From Escherichia coli (lineage in GTDB: Bacteria; Pseudomonadota; Gammaproteobacteria; Enterobacterales; Enterobacteriaceae), in NCBI RefSeq assembly GCF_024223415.1, contig NZ_CP100500.1: a stretch of DNA of 64,000 nucleotides; one strand, given 5' to 3'. Position 1 is the stretch's first letter. The number at the start of each line of letters is the position of its first letter. A model generated the notes under the pieces. It saw only the letters and a program-made list of their open reading frames with translations, searched no databases and had not been told where the DNA came from. This document shows positions 28,491 to 42,496 of this stretch, piece by piece. The translations under genes and the position numbers were made by a program.

Positions 28491-31082
28491 ATGCATCAAT
28501 CTGGTTCTGTTTCTCTTTGTCGTTCCGCAATATCTGTTCTGGTGGCTACAGCGTTATATTCACCCATAGCATTGGCATCAACAGTTGAGTATGGTGAGAC
28601 AGTTGATGGTGTTGTCCTGGAAAAAGATATCCAGCTGGTTTATGGGACCGCCAATAATACGAAAATCAATCCTGGCGGAGAACAGCATATTAAAGAATTT
28701 GGTATAAGTAGTAATACTGAAATTAACGGCGGGTATCAGTACATTGAAATGAATGGCACCGCAGAATACTCAGTATTAAATGATGGTTATCAAATTGTTC
28801 AAATGGGTGGCGCGGCAAACCAGACTACGCTCAATAATGGTGTGCTACAGGTTTATGGCGCGGCGAATGATCCCACGATTAAAGGCGGGCGCTTAATTGT
28901 TGAAAAAGATGGGATTGCCGTCTTTGCCGCTATCGAAAAGGGAGGATTACTGGAGGTTAAAGACGGGGGATTAGCATTTGCGGTAGATCAGAAGGCAGGC
29001 GGTGCTATTAAAGCAACCACGCGGGTCATGGAGGTATTCGGAACAAACCGTCTCGGTCAGTTCGATATCAAGAATGGAATTGCAAACAATATGCTGTTGG
29101 AAAACGGCGGAAGTTTGCGAGTTGAAGAAAATGACTTCGCTTATAATACTACTGTAGATAGTGGCGGCTTACTGGAGGTTATGGATGGCGGGACTGCAAC
29201 TGGCGTTGATAAAAAAGCAGGCGGAAAATTAATTGTCTCAACGAATGCGCTGGAAGTGAGTGGTACAAACAGTAAAGGCCAATTTAGTATAAAAGATGGT
29301 GTGTCAAAAAATTATGAACTGGATGATGGTTCCGGGCTTATTGTTATGGAGGACACGCAGGCCATTGACACTATCCTTGATGAGCATGCCACTATGCAAT
29401 CGCTGGGAAAGGATACTGGGACGAGAGTGCAGGCAAATGCGGTATATGATCTCGGTCGATCAGATCAGAATGGAAGTATCACGTATTCCTCAAAAGCCAT
29501 CTCTGAAAATATGGTTATCAACAATGGCCGCGCTAACGTCTGGGCTGGCACAATGGTTAACGTGTCAGTCAGAGGGAATGATGGCATTCTTGAGGTCATG
29601 AAGCCGCAAATAAATTATGCACCCGCAATGTTGGTGGGTAAGGTAGTGGTTTCTGAGGGCGCTTCTTTTAGAACGCATGGTGCCGTGGATACCAGCAAAG
29701 CGGACGTTTCGCTCGAAAATAGCGTATGGACCATCATTGCCGATATCACTACGACGAACCAAAACACCCTCCTCAACTTAGCCAACCTTGCGATGTCTGA
29801 CGCAAATGTGATTATGATGGATGAGCCAGTGACTCGTTCATCAGTGACGGCAAGTGCGAAAAATTTCATTACGTTGACCACCAATACCCTGTCGGGAAAC
29901 GGCAATTTTTATATGCGTACCGATATGGCTAATCATCAGAGCGATCAGCTCAACGTCACCGGTCAGGCAACAGGTGATTTCAAAATATTCGTGACGGACA
30001 CCGGTGCCAGCCCGGCAGCAGGAGATAGCCTTACACTGGTAACAACGGGCGGCGGTGATGCTGCATTTACGTTGGGCAATGCCGGAGGTGTTGTTGATAT
30101 CGGTACGTATGAATATACCTTGCTGGATAATGGCAACCATAGCTGGAGTCTGGCAGAGAATCGCGCGCAAATTACCCCTTCAACCACTGATGTGCTGAAT
30201 ATGGCGGCCGCACAACCGCTGGTATTTGATGCAGAACTGGACACCGTGCGTGAGCGTCTTGGTAGCGTAAAAGGCGTTAGTTACGATACGGCGATGTGGA
30301 GTTCGGCAATTAACACCCGCAACAACGTGACCACTGATGCGGGAGCTGGTTTTGAGCAAACATTGACGGGCCTGACGCTCGGTATCGATAGCCGTTTCTC
30401 CCGTGAAGAAAGCAGCACAATTCGCGGCTTGTTCTTTGGTTACTCTCATTCTGATATTGGTTTTGATCGCGGCGGCAAAGGCAATGTCGATAGCTATACC
30501 CTGGGTGCTTATGCCGGTTGGGAGCATCAGAACGGTGCCTATGTTGATGGGGTGGTGAAAGTTGACCGTTTTGCCAACACCATCCATGGCAAGATGAGTA
30601 ATGGGGCAACAGCGTTTGGAGATTACAATAGTAACGGCGCGGGTGCTCATGTTGAGAGCGGGTTCCGTTGGGTTGACGGATTGTGGAGTGTTAGACCCTA
30701 TCTGGCCTTTACCGGCTTTACCACAGATGGTCAGGACTACACGTTATCAAACGGCATGCGCGCGGACGTGGGAAATACCCGGATATTACGCGCTGAAGCG
30801 GGAACGGCGGTAAGCTATCACATGGACCTGCAAAACGGTACGACGCTGGAACCCTGGCTGAAAGCCGCCGTGCGTCAGGAATACGCCGATTCTAACCAGG
30901 TGAAAGTTAATGACGATGGCAAATTTAATAATGATGTGGCTGGAACCAGTGGCGTTTATCAGGCTGGGATAAGGTCATCGTTTACCCCGACGTTAAGCGG
31001 TCATTTGTCAGTCAGCTATGGCAATGGCGCAGGGGTAGAATCGCCGTGGAATACCCAGGCGGGTGTGGTCTGGACGTTCTGA
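28491..31082 (+). CDS. yejO: Autotransporter YejO (apparently intact; passenger plus C-terminal beta-barrel)
   Basis: 863-aa ORF with signal peptide, repetitive passenger domain and C-terminal barrel ending ...GVVWTF; adjacent to narP as in E. coli. Confidence 0.8.
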   Translation: MHQSGSVSLCRSAISVLVATALYSPIALASTVEYGETVDGVVLEKDIQLVYGTANNTKINPGGEQHIKEFGISSNTEINGGYQYIEMNGTAEYSVLNDGYQIVQMGGAANQTTLNNGVLQVYGAANDPTIKGGRLIVEKDGIAVFAAIEKGGLLEVKDGGLAFAVDQKAGGAIKATTRVMEVFGTNRLGQFDIKNGIANNMLLENGGSLRVEENDFAYNTTVDSGGLLEVMDGGTATGVDKKAGGKLIVSTNALEVSGTNSKGQFSIKDGVSKNYELDDGSGLIVMEDTQAIDTILDEHATMQSLGKDTGTRVQANAVYDLGRSDQNGSITYSSKAISENMVINNGRANVWAGTMVNVSVRGNDGILEVMKPQINYAPAMLVGKVVVSEGASFRTHGAVDTSKADVSLENSVWTIIADITTTNQNTLLNLANLAMSDANVIMMDEPVTRSSVTASAKNFITLTTNTLSGNGNFYMRTDMANHQSDQLNVTGQATGDFKIFVTDTGASPAAGDSLTLVTTGGGDAAFTLGNAGGVVDIGTYEYTLLDNGNHSWSLAENRAQITPSTTDVLNMAAAQPLVFDAELDTVRERLGSVKGVSYDTAMWSSAINTRNNVTTDAGAGFEQTLTGLTLGIDSRFSREESSTIRGLFFGYSHSDIGFDRGGKGNVDSYTLGAYAGWEHQNGAYVDGVVKVDRFANTIHGKMSNGATAFGDYNSNGAGAHVESGFRWVDGLWSVRPYLAFTGFTTDGQDYTLSNGMRADVGNTRILRAEAGTAVSYHMDLQNGTTLEPWLKAAVRQEYADSNQVKVNDDGKFNNDVAGTSGVYQAGIRSSFTPTLSGHLSVSYGNGAGVESPWNTQAGVVWTF

Positions 31083-34683: not shown

Positions 34684-35268
34684 TTATGCTTTCCGTACGC
34701 CCGAGGAACTGGCATTTTTCAGAATAATATTATGCCCTGCTGGTGGCTTACCGTTATGCTTATTTTCTGCCTTCATGTTTCTGCGCTCCTGCTGTTTTTT
34801 CTTCATCTCATCCAGTCGCTTCCCCGCGTTCAACTGGTGCTCCTGTGTCACCTCCCCGCACGGATGGCCTTTCAGGTCGTAACGCACGCCACCAGCCATC
34901 AGGGAACGGTAATATCGCACTGAACTGACATAATACGCCAGCGTTGCGCGAAGCGCTCCCTGACCTAATGAAATACCTCTCGCAGTAATATCCTCCATCA
35001 GGTCATCAAATATGCCAACCTTAAGCGGTCTGGGCGATTCCTGGCTGAAAAGTTCAGGCCAGAGCGCGGCAAGGCGTTCAACGCGTCTGATATTTTTTTT
35101 CCGGCTCTTTTCTGATTTGCGTTTTGCTGCCGTCTTCTGTTGTGTTTTCTGCTCGCGGCTCTGCTTTTGCGCTGGTGTGGTTTTATCCGGCTGTTCAGCC
35201 TCCTGCGTCTTTTTCTGCGGTGTGCCGTATATGCCTTTTGGTTTTCGGTTAATGGTCAGCTTTGTCAT
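34684..35268 (-). CDS. FinO/ProQ-domain RNA-binding protein with a basic N-terminal extension
   Basis: Likely start MTKLTINRKPK (SD ggggagaa upstream); C-terminal region shares blocks with the ProQ N-terminal FinO domain as recalled (LWPELF, RPLKVGIFDDL, DLxGxPCGE). Confidence 0.65.
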   Translation of the reverse strand: MTKLTINRKPKGIYGTPQKKTQEAEQPDKTTPAQKQSREQKTQQKTAAKRKSEKSRKKNIRRVERLAALWPELFSQESPRPLKVGIFDDLMEDITARGISLGQGALRATLAYYVSSVRYYRSLMAGGVRYDLKGHPCGEVTQEHQLNAGKRLDEMKKKQQERRNMKAENKHNGKPPAGHNIILKNASSSGVRKA

Positions 35269-35347: not shown

Positions 35348-35668
35348 TTAATAACCGTCATCATTTACGTTATCAGGGTAATCACGCCATATTTCATCAG
35401 TAAGCGACGGTAGCCCCATCTGTTGTATTGTCCTGTCTGCGGCCCTTCTGACTGCGTGAACATCATAACGGTTTTCAGGTATCGGGCGCTTTGCCTTCCT
35501 GATACATTCCCTTGCTCTCATTGCCGCAAGTTCTCTGTGCCTGTCTTCCTGAAGAGTAATCATCACATCCTGCCACCTTCTGGCAGCCCGTCGCCACAGT
35601 CCCCTGCTCTCGAGTTCTTCTGCTGTCGCGTCGCTTATTGTCCGGTTCTTCGGTGTGCTGTTGTTCAT
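35348..35668 (-). CDS. PerC-family transcriptional activator-like protein
   Basis: 106 aa with AEELESRGLWRRAARRWQDVM, resembling the conserved PerC/Pch motif as recalled. Confidence 0.5.
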   Translation of the reverse strand: MNNSTPKNRTISDATAEELESRGLWRRAARRWQDVMITLQEDRHRELAAMRARECIRKAKRPIPENRYDVHAVRRAADRTIQQMGLPSLTDEIWRDYPDNVNDDGY

Positions 35669-36344: not shown

Positions 36345-36560
36345 TCCCCACCACTCCCCACTTTTGCTCCCCACTTTTTAAATTCCCCACTTGCTCCCCA
36401 CCTCGTTTTTTGAGTGAATCTAATGCTTTGTTTTTCATTGCGTTTTTTACTCCCCACTTTTTTGGATGTATACAGGTGGGAAAGTGGGGAATTATGTTTC
36501 AATTTTGTTAAATTCCCCACTCTCCCCACTTTTACTACCCACTTTTTACAGTGGGTAAAC
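36344..36560. repeat. Iteron cluster, putative island replication origin
   Basis: At least nine direct and inverted copies of (a/c)TCCCCAC(TTTT), e.g. actccccactttt, gctccccactttt, attccccacttg, plus inverted gtgggaaagtgggga, next to the primase/helicase gene. Confidence 0.6.
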
Positions 36561-37961
36561 ATCATCCCCATCGACACAAATCACGCCGTCTTTTTCCAGC
36601 TTGGACAGCCAGCGCCGGAAGTGCTTCATCTCATACCCCAGCTTTTTCATATCGTCGCGGAGAAGGGCGATAGTGCATGGCTCTTTGTGTGCCGTCCGCG
36701 TTCTGATGCACTGCCATAGCGCGGTATGGTTTTCCGTCTTGTTGCCTGCCTCCTCGATGCGCTCCAGTTCAACGGGAGAGCGCGGCTTATCAACCACCAC
36801 CAGCGACGTGATTAACTCCCCGTCAGCGTCGGTAAAAAGCTCCACCACGCGTAAATCGTAGGCGGCCTCTTTCAGTTCCTCCGCGTCCTTCATTTTGGTG
36901 CAGGATATAACCAGGGCTTTACTGTCTGCACCTTCTCGGCGAATACGGTATTCAGCGTCCAGAGATGCACGAAATGCACTGGAACCACGCGCCCCCTTTG
37001 TTTCATCCTTGCCGGAATGGTGGACCACCAGCACCGTGGCCCCTGTGCGTCGTTTCAGGTCGTCACATCCACGGATAAACGCCCCCATATCCCGCGCGTC
37101 ATTTTCATCATTACCGCCAAAGCAACGCGCCAGCGTATCCAGAATAATCATGCGTACCGGTTTACCCGTTTCCCGTTCAACCTGGCGGGAAGCGATAACC
37201 ATTTCATCAACATCAAGCGGGGCTGCCGGAAAAATCGGGCGGTTTACCAGGTACAGATTTTTCACCCGTTCATCATTAACGATTTCCCATGCCTTGATAC
37301 GACGGGGGACACCAATGCCACCTTCACCGACAACATACATCACCGAACCATGCGCCACCCTGCGGCCTCCCCAGTGGCGCCCCGTGGCAACATGACACGC
37401 CCAGGAACACGCAAGGAATGATTTATAGGAACCGCTCGCACCGTATGTGCTGCACAATGAATTAGCCGGAATCACGCCCTTAACGACATAATCAAGCTGT
37501 GTGTCGTATCCTGCAGATCCAATGCTCATGGGTAGCGTGGTTTTTCGCTGGCTGTATTGCTCATCAGTAAGTATTTCCCCGCGCTCTGCCTGTTCGCGGA
37601 TCCGTTGCAGGTAGTCGCGCCATTCCTCCCGCTTCTGGCTGTGCATTCCCTCGGGGTAATAACTCGCATCCCGTATACCTGCCGCCGCCAGTTTTTGCCC
37701 GATGGCATTAATATTTGATGGCTTGATGTGGCCTGCCTTGTACAGCCGGACACAATAGCGACCATCGTCGATAATTTTCAGGTCTGCCAGTTCGTCAAGC
37801 TGACTGTCTCCCAGCCATACTGGCGGGACGTTATCGCCAGCAAGTCGCCCGTCCTGTTCCTGCCATTGTTTTGCGTGCGCCCAGGCATCACTACCTGCAA
37901 AAATAATGACTTCGGTCATTTTGTTGTGTGGCTGTTTTTTTAAGTTCGGTGCCAGTTTCAT
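36546..37961 (-). CDS. Replication protein: putative primase/helicase (RecA-like NTPase, AAA_25/RepA-like)
   Basis: 471 aa; P-loop-like GASGSYKSF and Walker B-like MIILDTLARCF; position typical of satellite pri-rep genes. Confidence 0.55.
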   Translation of the reverse strand: MKLAPNLKKQPHNKMTEVIIFAGSDAWAHAKQWQEQDGRLAGDNVPPVWLGDSQLDELADLKIIDDGRYCVRLYKAGHIKPSNINAIGQKLAAAGIRDASYYPEGMHSQKREEWRDYLQRIREQAERGEILTDEQYSQRKTTLPMSIGSAGYDTQLDYVVKGVIPANSLCSTYGASGSYKSFLACSWACHVATGRHWGGRRVAHGSVMYVVGEGGIGVPRRIKAWEIVNDERVKNLYLVNRPIFPAAPLDVDEMVIASRQVERETGKPVRMIILDTLARCFGGNDENDARDMGAFIRGCDDLKRRTGATVLVVHHSGKDETKGARGSSAFRASLDAEYRIRREGADSKALVISCTKMKDAEELKEAAYDLRVVELFTDADGELITSLVVVDKPRSPVELERIEEAGNKTENHTALWQCIRTRTAHKEPCTIALLRDDMKKLGYEMKHFRRWLSKLEKDGVICVDGDDVYPL

Positions 37962-38261: not shown

Positions 38262-38462
38262 TTATTTTCCTGTCAGTGATTCCGGCTTTATTCCGGCGCG
38301 AATACAGGCTTCAGAAAAAAAAGCCAGAGAACCAATAACCTCATTATTTCTAAGGCGGCATTGCGATTTCACTTTCCCTTTATCCAGGAATATCAAAACG
38401 CGCCCCGTATAATCAGATGGCACATTAAGCACTACAGGTAAGTGCGCTTCATGATTATTCAT
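38262..38462 (-). CDS. Hypothetical small protein
   Basis: ORF 38262-38531; likely start MNNHEAH (66 aa). Confidence 0.35.
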   Translation of the reverse strand: MNNHEAHLPVVLNVPSDYTGRVLIFLDKGKVKSQCRLRNNEVIGSLAFFSEACIRAGIKPESLTGK

Positions 38463-38742
38463 GGCTAACCACCTCCTGGAATTTTCTTCTGTAACGCGCC
38501 TCTGCCACATATTCAGCATAGTCCGACGCAATATTGAGAATATCGCTACCCGTTCCTGAATGTTCGGCGGTTTCCAGTAAAAAACATGCAGCTTTTACCA
38601 TGTCAGCAACACATAACAGCGCAATATCTGTATCTTCCGGTGTGCCATCAAATTCCTGTTTCAGGGCATTAAAACGATCATCACGCATAACCCCATATTC
38701 ACAATCAGCAATCAGGATGGCTTTGGCCTCATTCAGTGCCAT
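38455..38742 (-). CDS. Hypothetical protein (C-terminal, protein-like part of a 595-aa stop-free frame; true start uncertain, could extend to about 38898)
   Basis: Last ~95 codons of frame 38455-40242 are acidic and helix-like; upstream part looks non-protein-like. Confidence 0.4.
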   Translation of the reverse strand: MALNEAKAILIADCEYGVMRDDRFNALKQEFDGTPEDTDIALLCVADMVKAACFLLETAEHSGTGSDILNIASDYAEYVAEARYRRKFQEVVSHE

Positions 38743-38896
38743 ATCAGCGGTAAGCTGTGCGTAGGCCAGCAAATGCGGGATTATTGCCCCTGTATATTCC
38801 GGCTCTCTGATAATGTGGTCGGATGTGTTGATTAAATAGTTTGTGCGAAAAATGCACCTGTAACCATCAGTTAACAACGGATATACAGGGGGGACC

Positions 38897-39067
38897 ATGA
38901 ATGATAAGGGGGTGCCGTTTGATGTGCTCCTGCAAAAGCTGAATGCTGCACGCGCCGCAAGGGAACGTGAGCGCATGAGTAATAACCCTGTCCCTCCTGA
39001 ATTACCTCGCCCTGAACATTTTCCGCTTGAGGATTTCATCAGGGGACGAATCCGAACAAAACGATAA
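38897..39067 (+). CDS. Small ORF a (56 aa); paralogous to ORF c
   Basis: MNDKGVPFDVLLQKLNAARAARERERMSNNPVPPELPRPEHFPLEDFIRGRIRTKR; G-rich SD-like sequence upstream; shares the FPLE-FI / RERER motif with ORF c. Confidence 0.3.
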   Translation: MNDKGVPFDVLLQKLNAARAARERERMSNNPVPPELPRPEHFPLEDFIRGRIRTKR

Positions 39068-39310
39068 CCGCCGCCGTGATATGAGGCATCACGACGCAAT
39101 GCATTACAGGTGAGCACCATGAACAAATCCATATTATCCCCCACAGTTCTGGACGTAAACACAAAGCAGCGACAGATATTATTACGCGCCGTCATTAAAG
39201 CCAGACACGAGAAATTAAACCAAATCTTAAAATAAGATACGCCGCTACCGCTGTAAGTCTTCATCAGAAACAGAAAACGCCAGAGCAGATGAGCACGGAG
39301 GTAACTCTTT

Positions 39311-39505
39311 ATGAAAATAAACGAATCAGGGGAAATTACCGAAGCCAGCGTGGTACGCCAGCGGAGGCGGGAACGACGGGTACGGCCCCCCGCGCCATCC
39401 GATAATTTCCCGCTTGAGCGCTTCATCAGTGAACGGCCCCGCATACGCTGGAACGGCACAACCCCATACCCCGAGGAGAGACAGACAAAAAACAAACAGC
39501 GATGA
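39311..39505 (+). CDS. Small ORF c (64 aa); paralogous to ORF a
   Basis: SD ggagg 8 nt upstream; contains RRRERRVRPPAPSDNFPLERFISERP. Confidence 0.3.
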   Translation: MKINESGEITEASVVRQRRRERRVRPPAPSDNFPLERFISERPRIRWNGTTPYPEERQTKNKQR

Positions 39506-39681
39506 TGAAATCTGGAGGCCAATACCATCACGCAGCCATCAGGAGATTGCTGACGCGCTTCCTGTTCGCTGGTGGCCTCGATGGTAATCACGCGCGGTTG
39601 TGCAGTGCTCAGGGCGATAAAACGCCACACAAAGGCCGTTTGTGTGTGCGCAAGGCGTGGGGTATGCTGTGTTCCAGCCAT
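39460..39681 (-). CDS. Icd-like (host cell division inhibitor-like) protein; 3' end undefined because the frame has no stop until 38455
   Basis: Strong SD (aggag, 9-nt spacer) before ATG at 39681; MAGTQHTPRLAHTQTAFVWRFIALS...TSEQEARQQ... resembles Icd-like proteins of satellite elements as recalled. Confidence 0.35.
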
Positions 39682-39808
39682 AATCGTTACTCCTGTTAAC
39701 GGTTTGGTTAGACGCCCTGCATGTGTGCCACCACTGCGGGGCGTTGTTTTTGTGGTGTCATTGGTATACATTGTCACCTTAATGGCATTATCACTACAGA
39801 GGTTTATC

Positions 39809-39985
39809 ATGTCAACCAATGACAACAAAAAAGAAAGATTTTCCGTACAACTACGCCTAGACGCAGATTTGTTCGAGCGTTTAAGTATTGCCATGAAAGA
39901 AGATGGCGACGATAACCGATCTGGATGGATCAAAAGGCTTTTACGACGCGAATTAGATAAACGCGGCATTGAGTCAAAAAGCTGA
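39809..39985 (+). CDS. Ribbon-helix-helix (Arc/Mnt-like) DNA-binding protein
   Basis: 58 aa; ERFSVQLRLDADLFERLSIAMKEDGDDNRSGWIKRLLRRE parallels the Arc repressor pattern (beta-strand then two helices) as recalled. Confidence 0.5.
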   Translation: MSTNDNKKERFSVQLRLDADLFERLSIAMKEDGDDNRSGWIKRLLRRELDKRGIESKS

Positions 39986-40078
39986 CAGCCAACCAGCAAG
40001 CCAGCACACTGATCACATTGCCCACCAGCCGCAAATGTGGCATTGTTGGTGATGCTTTTGTTTTCCCTTGTTCCCACT

Positions 40079-40108
40079 GGCGACCCTTTTGCGGTCGCCT
40101 TTGTTTTG
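40079..40108 (+). terminator. Rho-independent terminator after the RHH gene
   Basis: ggcgacccttttgcggtcgcc + tttgtttt. Confidence 0.55.
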
Positions 40109-40202
40109 CCTGTTATCCGGCAATTGTGGCGCTTCGCCACACGGTTTATATAACCCCACTGCTCAGATTCATTTTTTGCGCAGTAGGTTAATTGTTCGCA
40201 AG

Positions 40203-40231
40203 GGCGGCTCCTTATCGGGGCCGCTTTTTTC
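40203..40231 (+). terminator. Second plus-strand terminator before alpA
   Basis: gcggctccttatcggggccgc + tttttt. Confidence 0.5.
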
Positions 40232-40256
40232 GTGTTTGTCATATCTGTGATACCCG

Positions 40257-40463
40257 TTAAGCAGCCGTTCCGCGTGCTTCCTGTTCGCGTTCTTTCTGCC
40301 AGGCCAACACATCATCCTCATACCATCCGCGACGGCGTAAACCAACGCGAAAACCCTGCGGAAATTCTCCGGCGTTGATCATGCTTTGCAGCGTGCTGTC
40401 TGCCTTGATGTGGATAATTTTTTTTACTTCCTGGCGAAAGATAATTTTTCTGATTGCTTCCAT
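40257..40463 (-). CDS. alpA: AlpA-family regulator / excisionase-like protein
   Basis: 68 aa; HTH region LQSMINAGEFPQGFRVGLRRRGWYEDDVLAW typical of AlpA-family proteins. Confidence 0.7.
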   Translation of the reverse strand: MEAIRKIIFRQEVKKIIHIKADSTLQSMINAGEFPQGFRVGLRRRGWYEDDVLAWQKEREQEARGTAA

Positions 40464-40593
40464 CGTGATTTACCTTGTGAATCCGGTGTATTCCGGTGAC
40501 AAATACGGTAAATCATCGGATATGGGTAAAAACAGTTCCCACCGTTTTTAAACGGTATACACCGTTTTTTATATTGATGATTTGAAATGGAAT

Positions 40594-40622
40594 TATAAAA
40601 AAAGCGGCATTTCTGCCGCTTC
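40594..40622 (-). terminator. Terminator between the int-proximal ORF and alpA
   Basis: Minus strand agcggcagaaatgccgct followed by a T-run. Confidence 0.45.
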
Positions 40623-40630
40623 CAGGATTG

Positions 40631-40882
40631 TTACCGCCATTTTTTGGGCCTGCCTCCGATCTTCATAGATGCCGGACGTACGACCTTATCAATACTTACC
40701 GCCAGATTTCTGGAAGCGCCACGGGATACCAGAAAATCTACTACCTGTTTTTTTGATGGGGCCGTCGTCCTGTCCTCCGGATCGTAGGTTGACCAAAATT
40801 CATGCTGAACCATCAGGGCCAGTTGCAGCCCGTCGCAATTGCATCTGATATTTTTTTGCATCTTAACGGTTTCATGTTTCAC
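40631..40882 (-). CDS. Hypothetical protein between int and alpA
   Basis: 83-aa ORF with basic C-terminus (GGRPKKWR). Confidence 0.4.
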   Translation of the reverse strand: MKHETVKMQKNIRCNCDGLQLALMVQHEFWSTYDPEDRTTAPSKKQVVDFLVSRGASRNLAVSIDKVVRPASMKIGGRPKKWR

Positions 40883-40959: not shown

Positions 40960-42219
40960 CTACACGGCTCGGATACCCCTTTTACCACTGGCGAGGGTTA
41001 CGCCCGTCGCCGCAGCCTCGACAAATTCGCCCCACCAGCGCATCAGCACGATGCGTTTTTCTATGTAGTTGCTCCGGTTGTATGCCCGTCTAACTTCGTT
41101 GGTGTCGACGTGGGCAAGTGCCGCCTCTATTACGTCCGGCTCGAATCCTTCCTCGTTCGCTGCTGTGCTGAATATGGCGCGTAATCCATGAGACACCAGC
41201 ACGCCAGCGAATCCCATACGCCGCAATGCTGCGTTAGCTGTCTGGCTGTTCATCGGCTGCTGTGGGTCTTTCAGACTTGGGAAAACGTAATTGCGGTGGT
41301 GGCTGATTGGTTTCATGGCCTCCAGCACCGCCATAGCCTGACCGGAAAGCGGGATAACGTGATCCCTGCGCATCTTCATGCGTCCGGCAGGTATCGTCCA
41401 TTGCTTCGCGTCCAGGTTGATTTCATCCCACCGCGTTGATGACGCTTCGGCGGGACGGGTTACGGTCAGTAACTGCCATTCAATCAGTAATCTGGTCTGC
41501 CGTTCTGTTGCCGATACTGATAAAGCCTGCATAAGCTCGGGCAGCTGTTCGGGGCGGATTGTTGGCATATGTTTTTTTACAGGTGAGGGAAACGCCTTAC
41601 GCACATTCATAGCCGGATTGGCATCAATCAGCCCACTGTTGGCGGCGTAATCCATTACCTCATTAACGCGCTGTAAAACCCGCTTGAGTGTTTCCAGGTT
41701 GCCGCGCTCCTTGATGGGGGTAAGCACTTCAACGAACCTTCGGGCGGTGAGGGTATCTATTGGCGTGTTGCCGATGAACGGGAATACATATTTATCCAGC
41801 GAACGCCAGATGTCTTTAATCGTGTTGGGGGCCAGATTCTGGCTGATTTTCACCTGGTACCATGCCGCCGCCACATTTTCGAACGTGTTCCCTTGTCTTC
41901 GGGCCTCTGTCTCTCTTTTTTGCCTCTCGTGGTCCTGCGGGTCAGTTCCGGCACTGATTAACGTCCTGTACTCGCTACGGCGTTTTCTGGCATCAGCCAG
42001 GGAAACATCTTCAAGCGATCCAAAACTCAGCAATATTCTTTTTTTGTCCGATGGTCGGTAGTAGGAAAATCTCCAGAGTTTTGATCCAGACGGTTTGACC
42101 AGGAGAAAAAGCCCTCCGCCGTCCTGCAGGGTGTACTCCTTTTGCGCTGGTCTGGCTGCTTTGATCTGCACTGTGGTTAATGGGTGTGTTTTTCTCGCCA
42201 TATGTCTATGATTCCACAC
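40960..42219 (-). CDS. int: Tyrosine recombinase / integrase (P4-type)
   Basis: 419 aa adjacent to tRNA-Pro; N-terminal arm-binding region (LFLLVKPSGSKLWRFSYY) and C-terminal catalytic domain (HGLRAIFST...LAHV...RAYNRSNY). Confidence 0.9.
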   Translation of the reverse strand: MWNHRHMARKTHPLTTVQIKAARPAQKEYTLQDGGGLFLLVKPSGSKLWRFSYYRPSDKKRILLSFGSLEDVSLADARKRRSEYRTLISAGTDPQDHERQKRETEARRQGNTFENVAAAWYQVKISQNLAPNTIKDIWRSLDKYVFPFIGNTPIDTLTARRFVEVLTPIKERGNLETLKRVLQRVNEVMDYAANSGLIDANPAMNVRKAFPSPVKKHMPTIRPEQLPELMQALSVSATERQTRLLIEWQLLTVTRPAEASSTRWDEINLDAKQWTIPAGRMKMRRDHVIPLSGQAMAVLEAMKPISHHRNYVFPSLKDPQQPMNSQTANAALRRMGFAGVLVSHGLRAIFSTAANEEGFEPDVIEAALAHVDTNEVRRAYNRSNYIEKRIVLMRWWGEFVEAAATGVTLASGKRGIRAV

Positions 42220-42419: not shown

Positions 42420-42496
42420 TGGTCGGCACGAGAGGATTTGAACCTCCGACCCCCGACACCCCATGACGGTGCGCTACCAGGCTGCGCTACGTGCCG
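42420..42496 (-). tRNA. proL: tRNA-Pro (proL-type)
   Basis: Reverse complement reads CGGCACGTAGCGCAGCCTGGTAGCGCACCGTCATGGGGTGTCGGGGGTCGGAGGTTCAAATCCTCTCGTGCCGACCA (77 nt, cloverleaf-compatible). Confidence 0.9.

Follow-up and report, generated by a model that had tools for sequence, protein, structure and literature searches.

Two intrinsic terminators of the same strand, lying one behind the other opposite the 3' end of alpA, raise the question of whether a separate small RNA gene occupies the interval between them. The locus lies in a satellite of Escherichia coli, within the 64,000-nucleotide stretch of DNA analysed here (the window). For Gram-negative and capsid-forming PICIs, which are induced through alpA, both the silencing of alpA and the replication operon and the content of the junction between the int-alpA and icd-rep units are poorly described.

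The satellite and its gene neighbourhood

Judged by its gene layout, the host element is a capsid-forming PICI/P4-like satellite. Its integration site in the E. coli window is tRNA-Pro(GGG) (42420-42496), and MicF, the rplY leader and yejM-proL were found in the same 64 kb. The minus strand of the satellite carries int (42219..40960), a small ORF of 76 aa between int and alpA, alpA itself (40463..40257, with its stop codon at 40257-40259 and a weak match to Pfam Phage_AlpA), an Icd-like gene (ATG at 39681; NCBIfam NF033153, E = 3e-16), a DUF4222 gene, a RepA-type helicase (37961..36546) with an iteron-rich putative ori directly downstream (36345-36545), and genes for ssb, PerC, a ProQ/FinO-domain protein and the capsid. 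Helper-phage induction of PICIs needs alpA (bioRxiv 10.1101/2022.09.08.507074).

Between icd and alpA lies a plus-strand unit whose first gene (39809-39985; 58 aa, an ORF with an AGAGG Shine-Dalgarno sequence) is RHH-like and of the YlcI/YnfO type. It matches NikR-N and YlcI_YnfO_N weakly and short of the threshold, and homologous islands have YlcI/YnfO annotated at this position. The gene is divergent from the sigma-70 promoter of the Icd-like gene (39815..39787, minus strand; TTGACA-17-GATAAT, 11 of 12 consensus matches) and is followed by a 270-nt non-coding stretch.

Terminators and the hairpin between them

A consensus scan recovered two plus-strand intrinsic terminators, T1 and T2, where the earlier interpretation of this locus from its sequence alone (the sequence-only reading) had placed them. 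The T1 stem (40079-40099; GGCGACC-CTTTTGC-GGTCGCC) has seven pairs, six of them G-C, and a U-tract follows at 40100-40108 (TTTGTTTTG). The stem of T2, with 12 pairs of which seven are G-C, lies at 40200-40228, and its six-T run at 40225-40230. The hairpin that had been reported between the terminators was also recovered, as a plus-strand palindrome at 40125-40141 (gtggcgcttcgccac/TGTGGCGCTTCGCCACA; TGTGGCG-CTT-CGCCACA). The position relative to alpA had been described correctly as well: the minus-strand gene alpA has its stop codon 26 nt past the last T of T2, so that T2 and the alpA coding sequence converge without overlapping.

The 3-kb region contains nine terminator-like sites, compared with 3.3 +/- 2.0 in shuffles, and T1 and T2 have the highest G-C pair counts among the nine. 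The plus strand of 40109-40240 folds at -47.5 kcal/mol (z = -3.65), and the fold of the longer interval 39986-40240 has z = -4.06. The argument that a second terminator would be redundant unless a short transcript started between the two is invalid taken by itself.

Conservation of the block across E. coli genomes

The block at 40000-40230 is matched in 1,275 of 5,426 complete E. coli genomes, 264 of which cover at least 80% of it. At every locus examined it is placed between a YlcI-type plus-strand unit and an int-alpA minus-strand unit. The latter also includes a BRO-N gene in some islands. The right-hand neighbour of the block is not alpA in all cases, being BRO-N or other sequence in other islands. 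To retrieve 80 satellite contigs, among which there are 37 distinct tandem-type alleles, we searched with a pattern from the core immediately ahead of T2; the pattern excluded the TGATATAAT box discussed below.

Conservation stops exactly at the T-run of T2, beyond which at least three unrelated right flanks were found. A second boundary falls at 40108, the end of the T1 U-tract, where the BLAST matches of another group of genomes end. These genomes have only the part of the block that closes with T1, a putative small-RNA module with its own promoter (P_A, RNA-A and T1) that the earlier account had overlooked. This module stands alone in loci L153, L167, L189 and O157:H7 L211, with unrelated sequence right after the T-run of T1. 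Nissle-type islands (L087) have a single predicted RNA of ~85 nt, which combines a P_A box (TTGCCC-17-TATCAT) with the same core GGUUAAUUGUUC/GGTTAATTGTTC and T2 as in the tandem type. To judge from these boundaries, the RNA-A module and the module that ends at T2 (RNA-B) recombine independently among islands.

The substitutions within the stems were compared. T2 is 98.5% paired over the 37 alleles, with one compensatory change from C-G to A-U, a U·G pair in 36 of the 37 and further C-to-U changes that give G·U; the allele of the window has an extra G-C pair, formed by changes in both arms. Between the two main variants of T1 a G-C pair is flipped to C-G, and three independent changes create G·U pairs. 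The hairpin at 40125-40141 keeps 82% of its pairing overall. Nineteen of the 37 alleles have G·U at one of its pairs, and in another allele its place is taken by a different palindrome (TGGTC-ATTTC-GACCA). Covariation is not significant, as the alleles are too similar: the one double-sided change was reached by 86 of 500 shuffles, and the score was not above controls. Read on the minus strand, the G·U pairs of all three stems are A·C mismatches, and the stem pairing is thus specific to the plus strand. The stems of T1, T2 and the hairpin are kept in hundreds of E. coli genomes with substitutions that preserve plus-strand pairing, which indicates that they are not there by chance.

No RNA is annotated at the block in the sampled RefSeq records. 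PGAP either makes no call at this place or predicts a spurious ORF across it, named 'Icd-like' or 'hypothetical'.

The predicted RNA-B module and its promoter

The family consensus has a perfect extended -10 element (TGnTATAAT), TGATATAAT, ~75 nt ahead of the T2 end. Both its sequence and its position are invariant in 36 of the 37 distinct alleles, and the columns that flank it are polymorphic. The perfect TGnTATAAT occurs only twice in the 64-kb window, both strands included. In the window this promoter, P_B, lies on the plus strand at 40146-40154 (hexamer 40149-54) and reads TTATATAAC, which departs from the consensus at 40147 (G to T) and 40154 (T to C); the extended -10 has thereby lost its TG and the hexamer its last T. 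The TTATATAAC allele is unique among the 37 and is common only to the window and strain 135. As both key positions of P_B are mutated, RNA-B is probably weak here or produced only through read-through of T1, and it may even be silent. No recognisable -35 was found for P_B. Although a missing -35 is usual for extended -10 promoters, its absence still makes the evidence for P_B weaker.

Transcription from P_B would give a plus-strand RNA of ~70 nt (~40161-40230), predicted to fold into a weak, AU-rich hairpin at the 5' end and T2 at the 3' end, with a core between them that stays single-stranded (GGUUAAUUGUUC, 40186-40197). The proposal of a separate short transcript starting between the terminators is therefore favoured by the comparison of alleles and islands (the invariant -10, the end of the module at T2 and the finding of the modules singly), while the mutated promoter of the window allele speaks against it. 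Two details of the proposal need revision. The transcript had been expected to measure ~100 nt, longer than the predicted RNA-B, and to include the hairpin. gtggcgcttcgccac lies upstream of the P_B-derived start, at about -36 to -20 relative to it, where it overlaps the -35 region, and is thus absent from RNA-B.

The predicted RNA-B fold has z = -2.75 in the window and z = -3.74 in the consensus allele. These folds leave an A/U-rich stretch of 12-15 nt, AGGUUAAUUGUUC, unpaired directly 5' of T2. The 5' hairpin is poorly conserved, its inner pairs being broken in more than half of the alleles. The U-tail has six U in the window and is interrupted in the common allele (UUUUUGUU). Neither an AUG nor a Shine-Dalgarno sequence was found in RNA-B. 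From 40178 onward, the T2/alpA side of the window is 98% identical to the Nissle-type allele, which makes the window locus a recombinant joined inside the conserved core.

The predicted RNA-A module

The promoter P_A (40018-40046, plus strand) has a -35 element TTGCCC at 40018-23, a 17-nt spacer, a -10 element CATTGT at 40041-46 and a TG at 40038-39. It is intact in the window (TTGCCC-17-TGgCATTGT), with the weak -10 CATTGT of the window type. Across alleles P_A keeps the -35 (TTGCCC, TTGTCC or TTGCCA), the 17-nt spacing and A2 and T6 of the -10, which occurs as CATTGT, TATCAT, TATGAT and CATAGT; the spacer and the downstream sequence diverge. A second, imperfect palindrome, GCCGCAAATGTGGC, lies in the spacer. 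The left boundary of conservation is located ~10 nt upstream of the P_A -35 and not at the ylcI stop.

The predicted RNA-A (~40052-40108, plus strand, ~55 nt) ends at T1 and folds at -15.1 kcal/mol (z = -4.45). An alignment of its variants with comparison of their frames revealed no conserved ORF: the indels are not multiples of three, and the conserved AUG frame stops after six codons in the common variant and is open through T1 in the window variant. A small hydrophobic ORF at 40037-40153 was considered as a type I toxin and rejected: it is not conserved, its frame being closed after 11 codons in the common variant, and T1 would cut it short.

In the O157:H7 FRIK2455 satellite next to yljB (L211, 3360-3460), an RNA-A-type module is the only one present and is directly convergent on an alpA-like gene. 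It consists of TTGCCC-17-TATGAT, a body of ~55 nt and then GGCGACCGCCACAGGTCGCC-TTTGTTTTA.

Searches for known families, targets and partners

Rfam searches of both strands, with the C4 family included, gave nothing relevant at the gathering threshold over the 64 kb or at E <= 10 over 39600-40700. No match to 39700-40500 was found in the phage database by distant blastn, and no paralogues of the RNA modules are present in the 64-kb window. In species-representative genomes the core pattern gave only chance matches in unrelated phyla, and the exact core is therefore absent from the representative genomes of other species. Literature searches, including sequence strings, yielded no link between PICI, P4-like or alpA regions and RNA-A or RNA-B, which the supplementary tables of EHEC, EPEC and UPEC sRNA surveys might hold. 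The RNA-A/RNA-B family thus has no record in Rfam 15, the sampled RefSeq annotation or the searchable literature, although sRNA genes with their own promoter and terminator on a mobile element are an ordinary kind of element.

The complementarity to island mRNAs that the sequence-only reading had suggested looking for did not lead to a conserved target in scans with the core complement and in duplex predictions. With up to two mismatches, the complement of the core has no conserved site in 92 island loci. Duplexes with 1.2 kb of upstream minus-strand RNA reached only ordinary best z values of -2.2 to -3.7, at scattered positions and with no conserved site. For neither RNA did the duplex scans reveal complementarity to the icd leader or a top match in it. 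A weak duplex match recurs in the 3' coding region of icd, with no compensatory change between the tandem and Nissle types, and an RNA-B duplex match at 30318-30359 (plus strand) falls on the non-coding strand of the island.

Two candidate roles were tried and discarded. RNA-A is complementary to the AGTGGGGAG/GTGGGGAAT iterons of the putative ori (36345-36545; -29.4 kcal/mol), as an RNA that controls the ori might be, without co-variation with iteron type: islands with the A1 variant of RNA-A have AGTGGGGA or TAACCCGCA iterons, and four different types accompany the A2 variant. This match was rejected as a coincidence of pyrimidine and purine tracts. A partnership with the ProQ/FinO-domain protein was also considered; the protein is genuine, yet it is encoded in only nine of 59 module-bearing islands, so that its gene is accessory cargo.

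Interpretation of the locus

The explanation that we prefer, and to which we would give about an even chance, is that the interval contains the promoter and body of the RNA-B gene, which is the downstream member of a tandem pair of sRNA modules placed behind the RHH-like gene and converging on alpA. Each module appears to have its own sigma-70 promoter and an intrinsic terminator specific to the plus strand. The terminators, the conservation of the promoters, the module boundaries and the strand specificity are observed in the alignments, and from these we infer transcription itself.

If both RNAs are made, their function need not concern alpA. They could be trans-acting base-pairing sRNAs of the Hfq type, dependent on a chaperone, with targets elsewhere, in the host, the helper phage or the island, the adjacency of alpA being incidental. 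The predicted architecture is classic for such RNAs, with a 5' hairpin, the A/U-rich single strand AGGUUAAUUGUUC, a G+C-rich terminator hairpin and a U-tail; the modules travel between islands with differing flanks, and the 3' half is kept while 5' halves and promoters are swapped between tandem and Nissle-type alleles. A variable 5' seed with a conserved 3' half is typical of sRNA families. We nevertheless consider this reading, the main rival, less likely than not, given that no convincing target emerged in the island from the core-complement and duplex scans, that the iteron match of RNA-A does not follow the iteron type, that the U-tail is interrupted in the common allele (UUUUUGUU) and that the island ProQ/FinO protein accompanies the modules in so few islands (9 of 59). 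A different possibility is that there is no separate transcript at all, T1 and T2 being fail-safe tandem terminators with a structured 3'UTR of the ylcI-type operon that insulate int-alpA from converging plus-strand transcription, and TGATATAAT being kept for some other reason. Tandem terminators are common at convergent operon junctions. Some read-through of T1 is plausible, as its U-tract is interrupted (TTTGTTTTG); the G·U-preserving changes in the hairpin at 40125-41 suggest transcription upstream of the RNA-B start, and the window allele tolerates the loss of the -10 consensus. Fail-safe terminators, however, hardly explain why 36 of 37 alleles have the 9-nt extended -10 consensus without a mismatch, between polymorphic flanks and at a set spacing to T2. 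Nor do they account for the promoter-like box that single-module islands retain, with -35, 17 nt and -10 kept and the spacer diverged, or for a conserved block that begins ~10 nt before the P_A -35 and not at the ylcI stop, and we regard this explanation as improbable.

The block might instead act as DNA: the RHH-like protein, AlpA or a different regulator of the island would bind its palindromes as operators, and the RNAs would be irrelevant. TGTGGCGCTTCGCCACA overlaps the -35 region of P_B and is replaced by a different palindrome in another allele, the imperfect palindrome GCCGCAAATGTGGC lies in the P_A spacer, and the RHH-like gene directly upstream would encode a DNA-binding protein. The first of these palindromes, however, is imperfect in most alleles, with G·U pairs (in 19 of the 37) that fit the plus strand alone, and operators leave both the strand-specific terminators and the end of conservation at T-runs unexplained. 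Moreover, an operator role is compatible with regulated sRNA promoters and is no alternative to them, and as a sole explanation it is very improbable. The least credible reading, to which we attach almost no weight, puts the functional RNA on the minus strand, as an immunity RNA of the P4 CI, P1 C4 or N15 CA type that is processed from alpA read-through and acts on the icd leader. In P1, N15 and P4, icd/kil-type genes are controlled by small processed RNAs; an Icd-like gene is nearby, and on the minus strand, too, the interval folds stably (-41.3 kcal/mol, z = -3.78). Against it stand the lack of an Rfam match on either strand even at E <= 10, the C4 family included, and the A·C mismatches into which the G·U pairs of the three stems turn on that strand. 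In addition, the element is ~320 nt from the icd start, past a plus-strand gene and the icd promoter and outside the icd leader, and no complementarity to that leader was found in the duplex scans.

A possible role in silencing alpA

For the preferred reading, two tandem plus-strand sRNA modules, the transcription of alpA itself suggests a function. The scan found no minus-strand terminator-like site between the alpA stop at 40257 and 39997, and the complements of T1 and T2 have A·C mismatches and no U-runs. Lacking an intrinsic terminator of its own, the alpA transcript should run antisense over both RNA genes. Such read-through would continue from the RNA genes into the RHH-like gene and on toward the icd-rep operon, and would be fully complementary to RNA-B and RNA-A. 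The two RNAs, and their convergent transcription, could pair or collide with it; alpA mRNA would be limited, less antisense transcription would reach the RHH-like gene and the icd-rep operon, and the island would be helped to stay quiescent until a helper phage induces alpA. We tentatively suggest that RNA-A, RNA-B and convergent transcription oppose read-through and damp alpA in this way, much as lambda OOP opposes cII, a possibility to which we give somewhat less than even weight. RNA-B stops 26 nt short of the alpA coding sequence, so that an effect in cis would require the putative alpA 3'UTR.

A broader and more speculative proposal, which we think is unlikely, is that Gram-negative PICIs owe their maintenance or 'immunity', for which a determinant has been missing, to RNA-A and RNA-B, together with the single-module Nissle and O157 forms. 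The widespread antisense pair and the RHH-like protein would then hold alpA read-through and icd-rep off until a helper phage induces alpA. Such a role would parallel that of P4 CI RNA in function, but with RNAs from the opposite strand and from independent promoters.

Comparison with known systems

The 77-nt OOP RNA of lambda resembles the predicted RNA-B as a short RNA of a mobile element with its own promoter, constitutive in the case of OOP and putative in that of RNA-B, and an intrinsic terminator. OOP converges on the 3' end of cII, a key lifestyle regulator gene, and is thought to damp cII, much as RNA-B would converge toward alpA. However, OOP overlaps the cII coding sequence, whereas RNA-B ends 26 nt before the alpA stop and could pair only with a putative 3'UTR or read-through transcript. 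There is also no sequence similarity between them, and two RNAs are predicted here in tandem.

The CI RNA of P4, C4 of P1/P7 and CA of N15 are likewise small RNAs in the control region of an element with an Icd-like gene, and an RNA brake on the lytic or replication operon is plausibly shared with these systems. They are cut from the icd/kil leader, on the same strand, and pair with leader repeats. In contrast, RNA-A and RNA-B are on the strand opposite to icd, have their own predicted promoters and terminators, and lie beyond the intervening RHH-like gene.

Hfq-dependent prophage sRNAs of E. coli such as DicF and the Pas sRNAs have in common with the predicted modules that they are poorly annotated or unannotated sRNA genes of mobile elements, with a variable 5' part and a conserved 3' terminator module, a mosaic distribution among strains and copy variation. 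Pas sRNAs are found in lambdoid prophages, beside structural or lysis genes (bioRxiv 10.64898/2026.05.13.724894). Unlike RNA-A and RNA-B, they are not in PICI/P4-like satellites, and no sequence relation between the two groups was found.

About one in four complete E. coli genomes has the conserved pair of predicted sRNA genes at the int-alpA/icd-rep junction, for which neither RefSeq nor Rfam has an annotation; the pair is a candidate regulator. The natural promoter-down allele of the window offers a ready-made comparison. If the RNAs act in trans, they would add a satellite-borne sRNA family to the accessory regulome of E. coli.

Other features of the island

On the minus strand, a frame of 595 codons without a stop extends over 38455-40242, and PGAP calls it as one 'Icd-like' protein in the identical strain 135. 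The Icd-like model matches 39502-39681 only, and further upstream the frame is the antisense shadow that the RNA and RHH-like genes cast. Normal Icd-like homologues end in DGCVMVFAARIRQGVRHVQ followed by a stop codon. The window diverges from them after DGCVMV, which indicates that the 3' end and stop of icd have been replaced by a rare inserted segment (38540-39520), of which at least 80% is covered in only nine of 5,426 genomes. The rare segment has two paralogous small ORFs on the plus strand, at 38897-39067 and 39311-39505, which are convergent on icd. Both share an invariant F-x-L-E-x-F with a 'hypothetical' gene that follows ylcI elsewhere (for example Nissle L087, 2758-2931), and the ORFs with this motif form an uncharacterised family of arginine-rich small proteins of these satellites.

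In the minus-strand interval 39626-39815, a ~100-nt leader that contains a strong hairpin (ACGCCCCGCA...TGCAGGGCGT) separates the near-consensus icd promoter from icd, and a terminator-like hairpin with a U-run lies inside the first 20 codons of icd (39646-39626). By comparison with immunity regions of the P4/P1 type, the latter may serve for attenuation; no RNA resembling C4 was found in the interval.

The iteron-rich region at 36345-36545 contains the repeats AGTGGGGAG and GTGGGGAAT in both orientations, and related islands have at least five iteron types. This region is probably the replication origin of the satellite. The ProQ/FinO-domain RNA chaperone-like protein (Pfam E = 1e-26) and a PerC-family activator (E = 1e-26) are encoded by adjoining minus-strand genes at 34684-35268 and 35348-35668.

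Between the 76-aa ORF and alpA, a terminator-like hairpin on the minus strand (40623-40600) is followed by TTTTTTTAT. On the plus strand, a hairpin at 40550-40567 is followed by TTTTATAT, and a weak promoter-like site lies at 40547-40575. The interval 40550-40623 is possibly a second convergent or bidirectional signal upstream of alpA.
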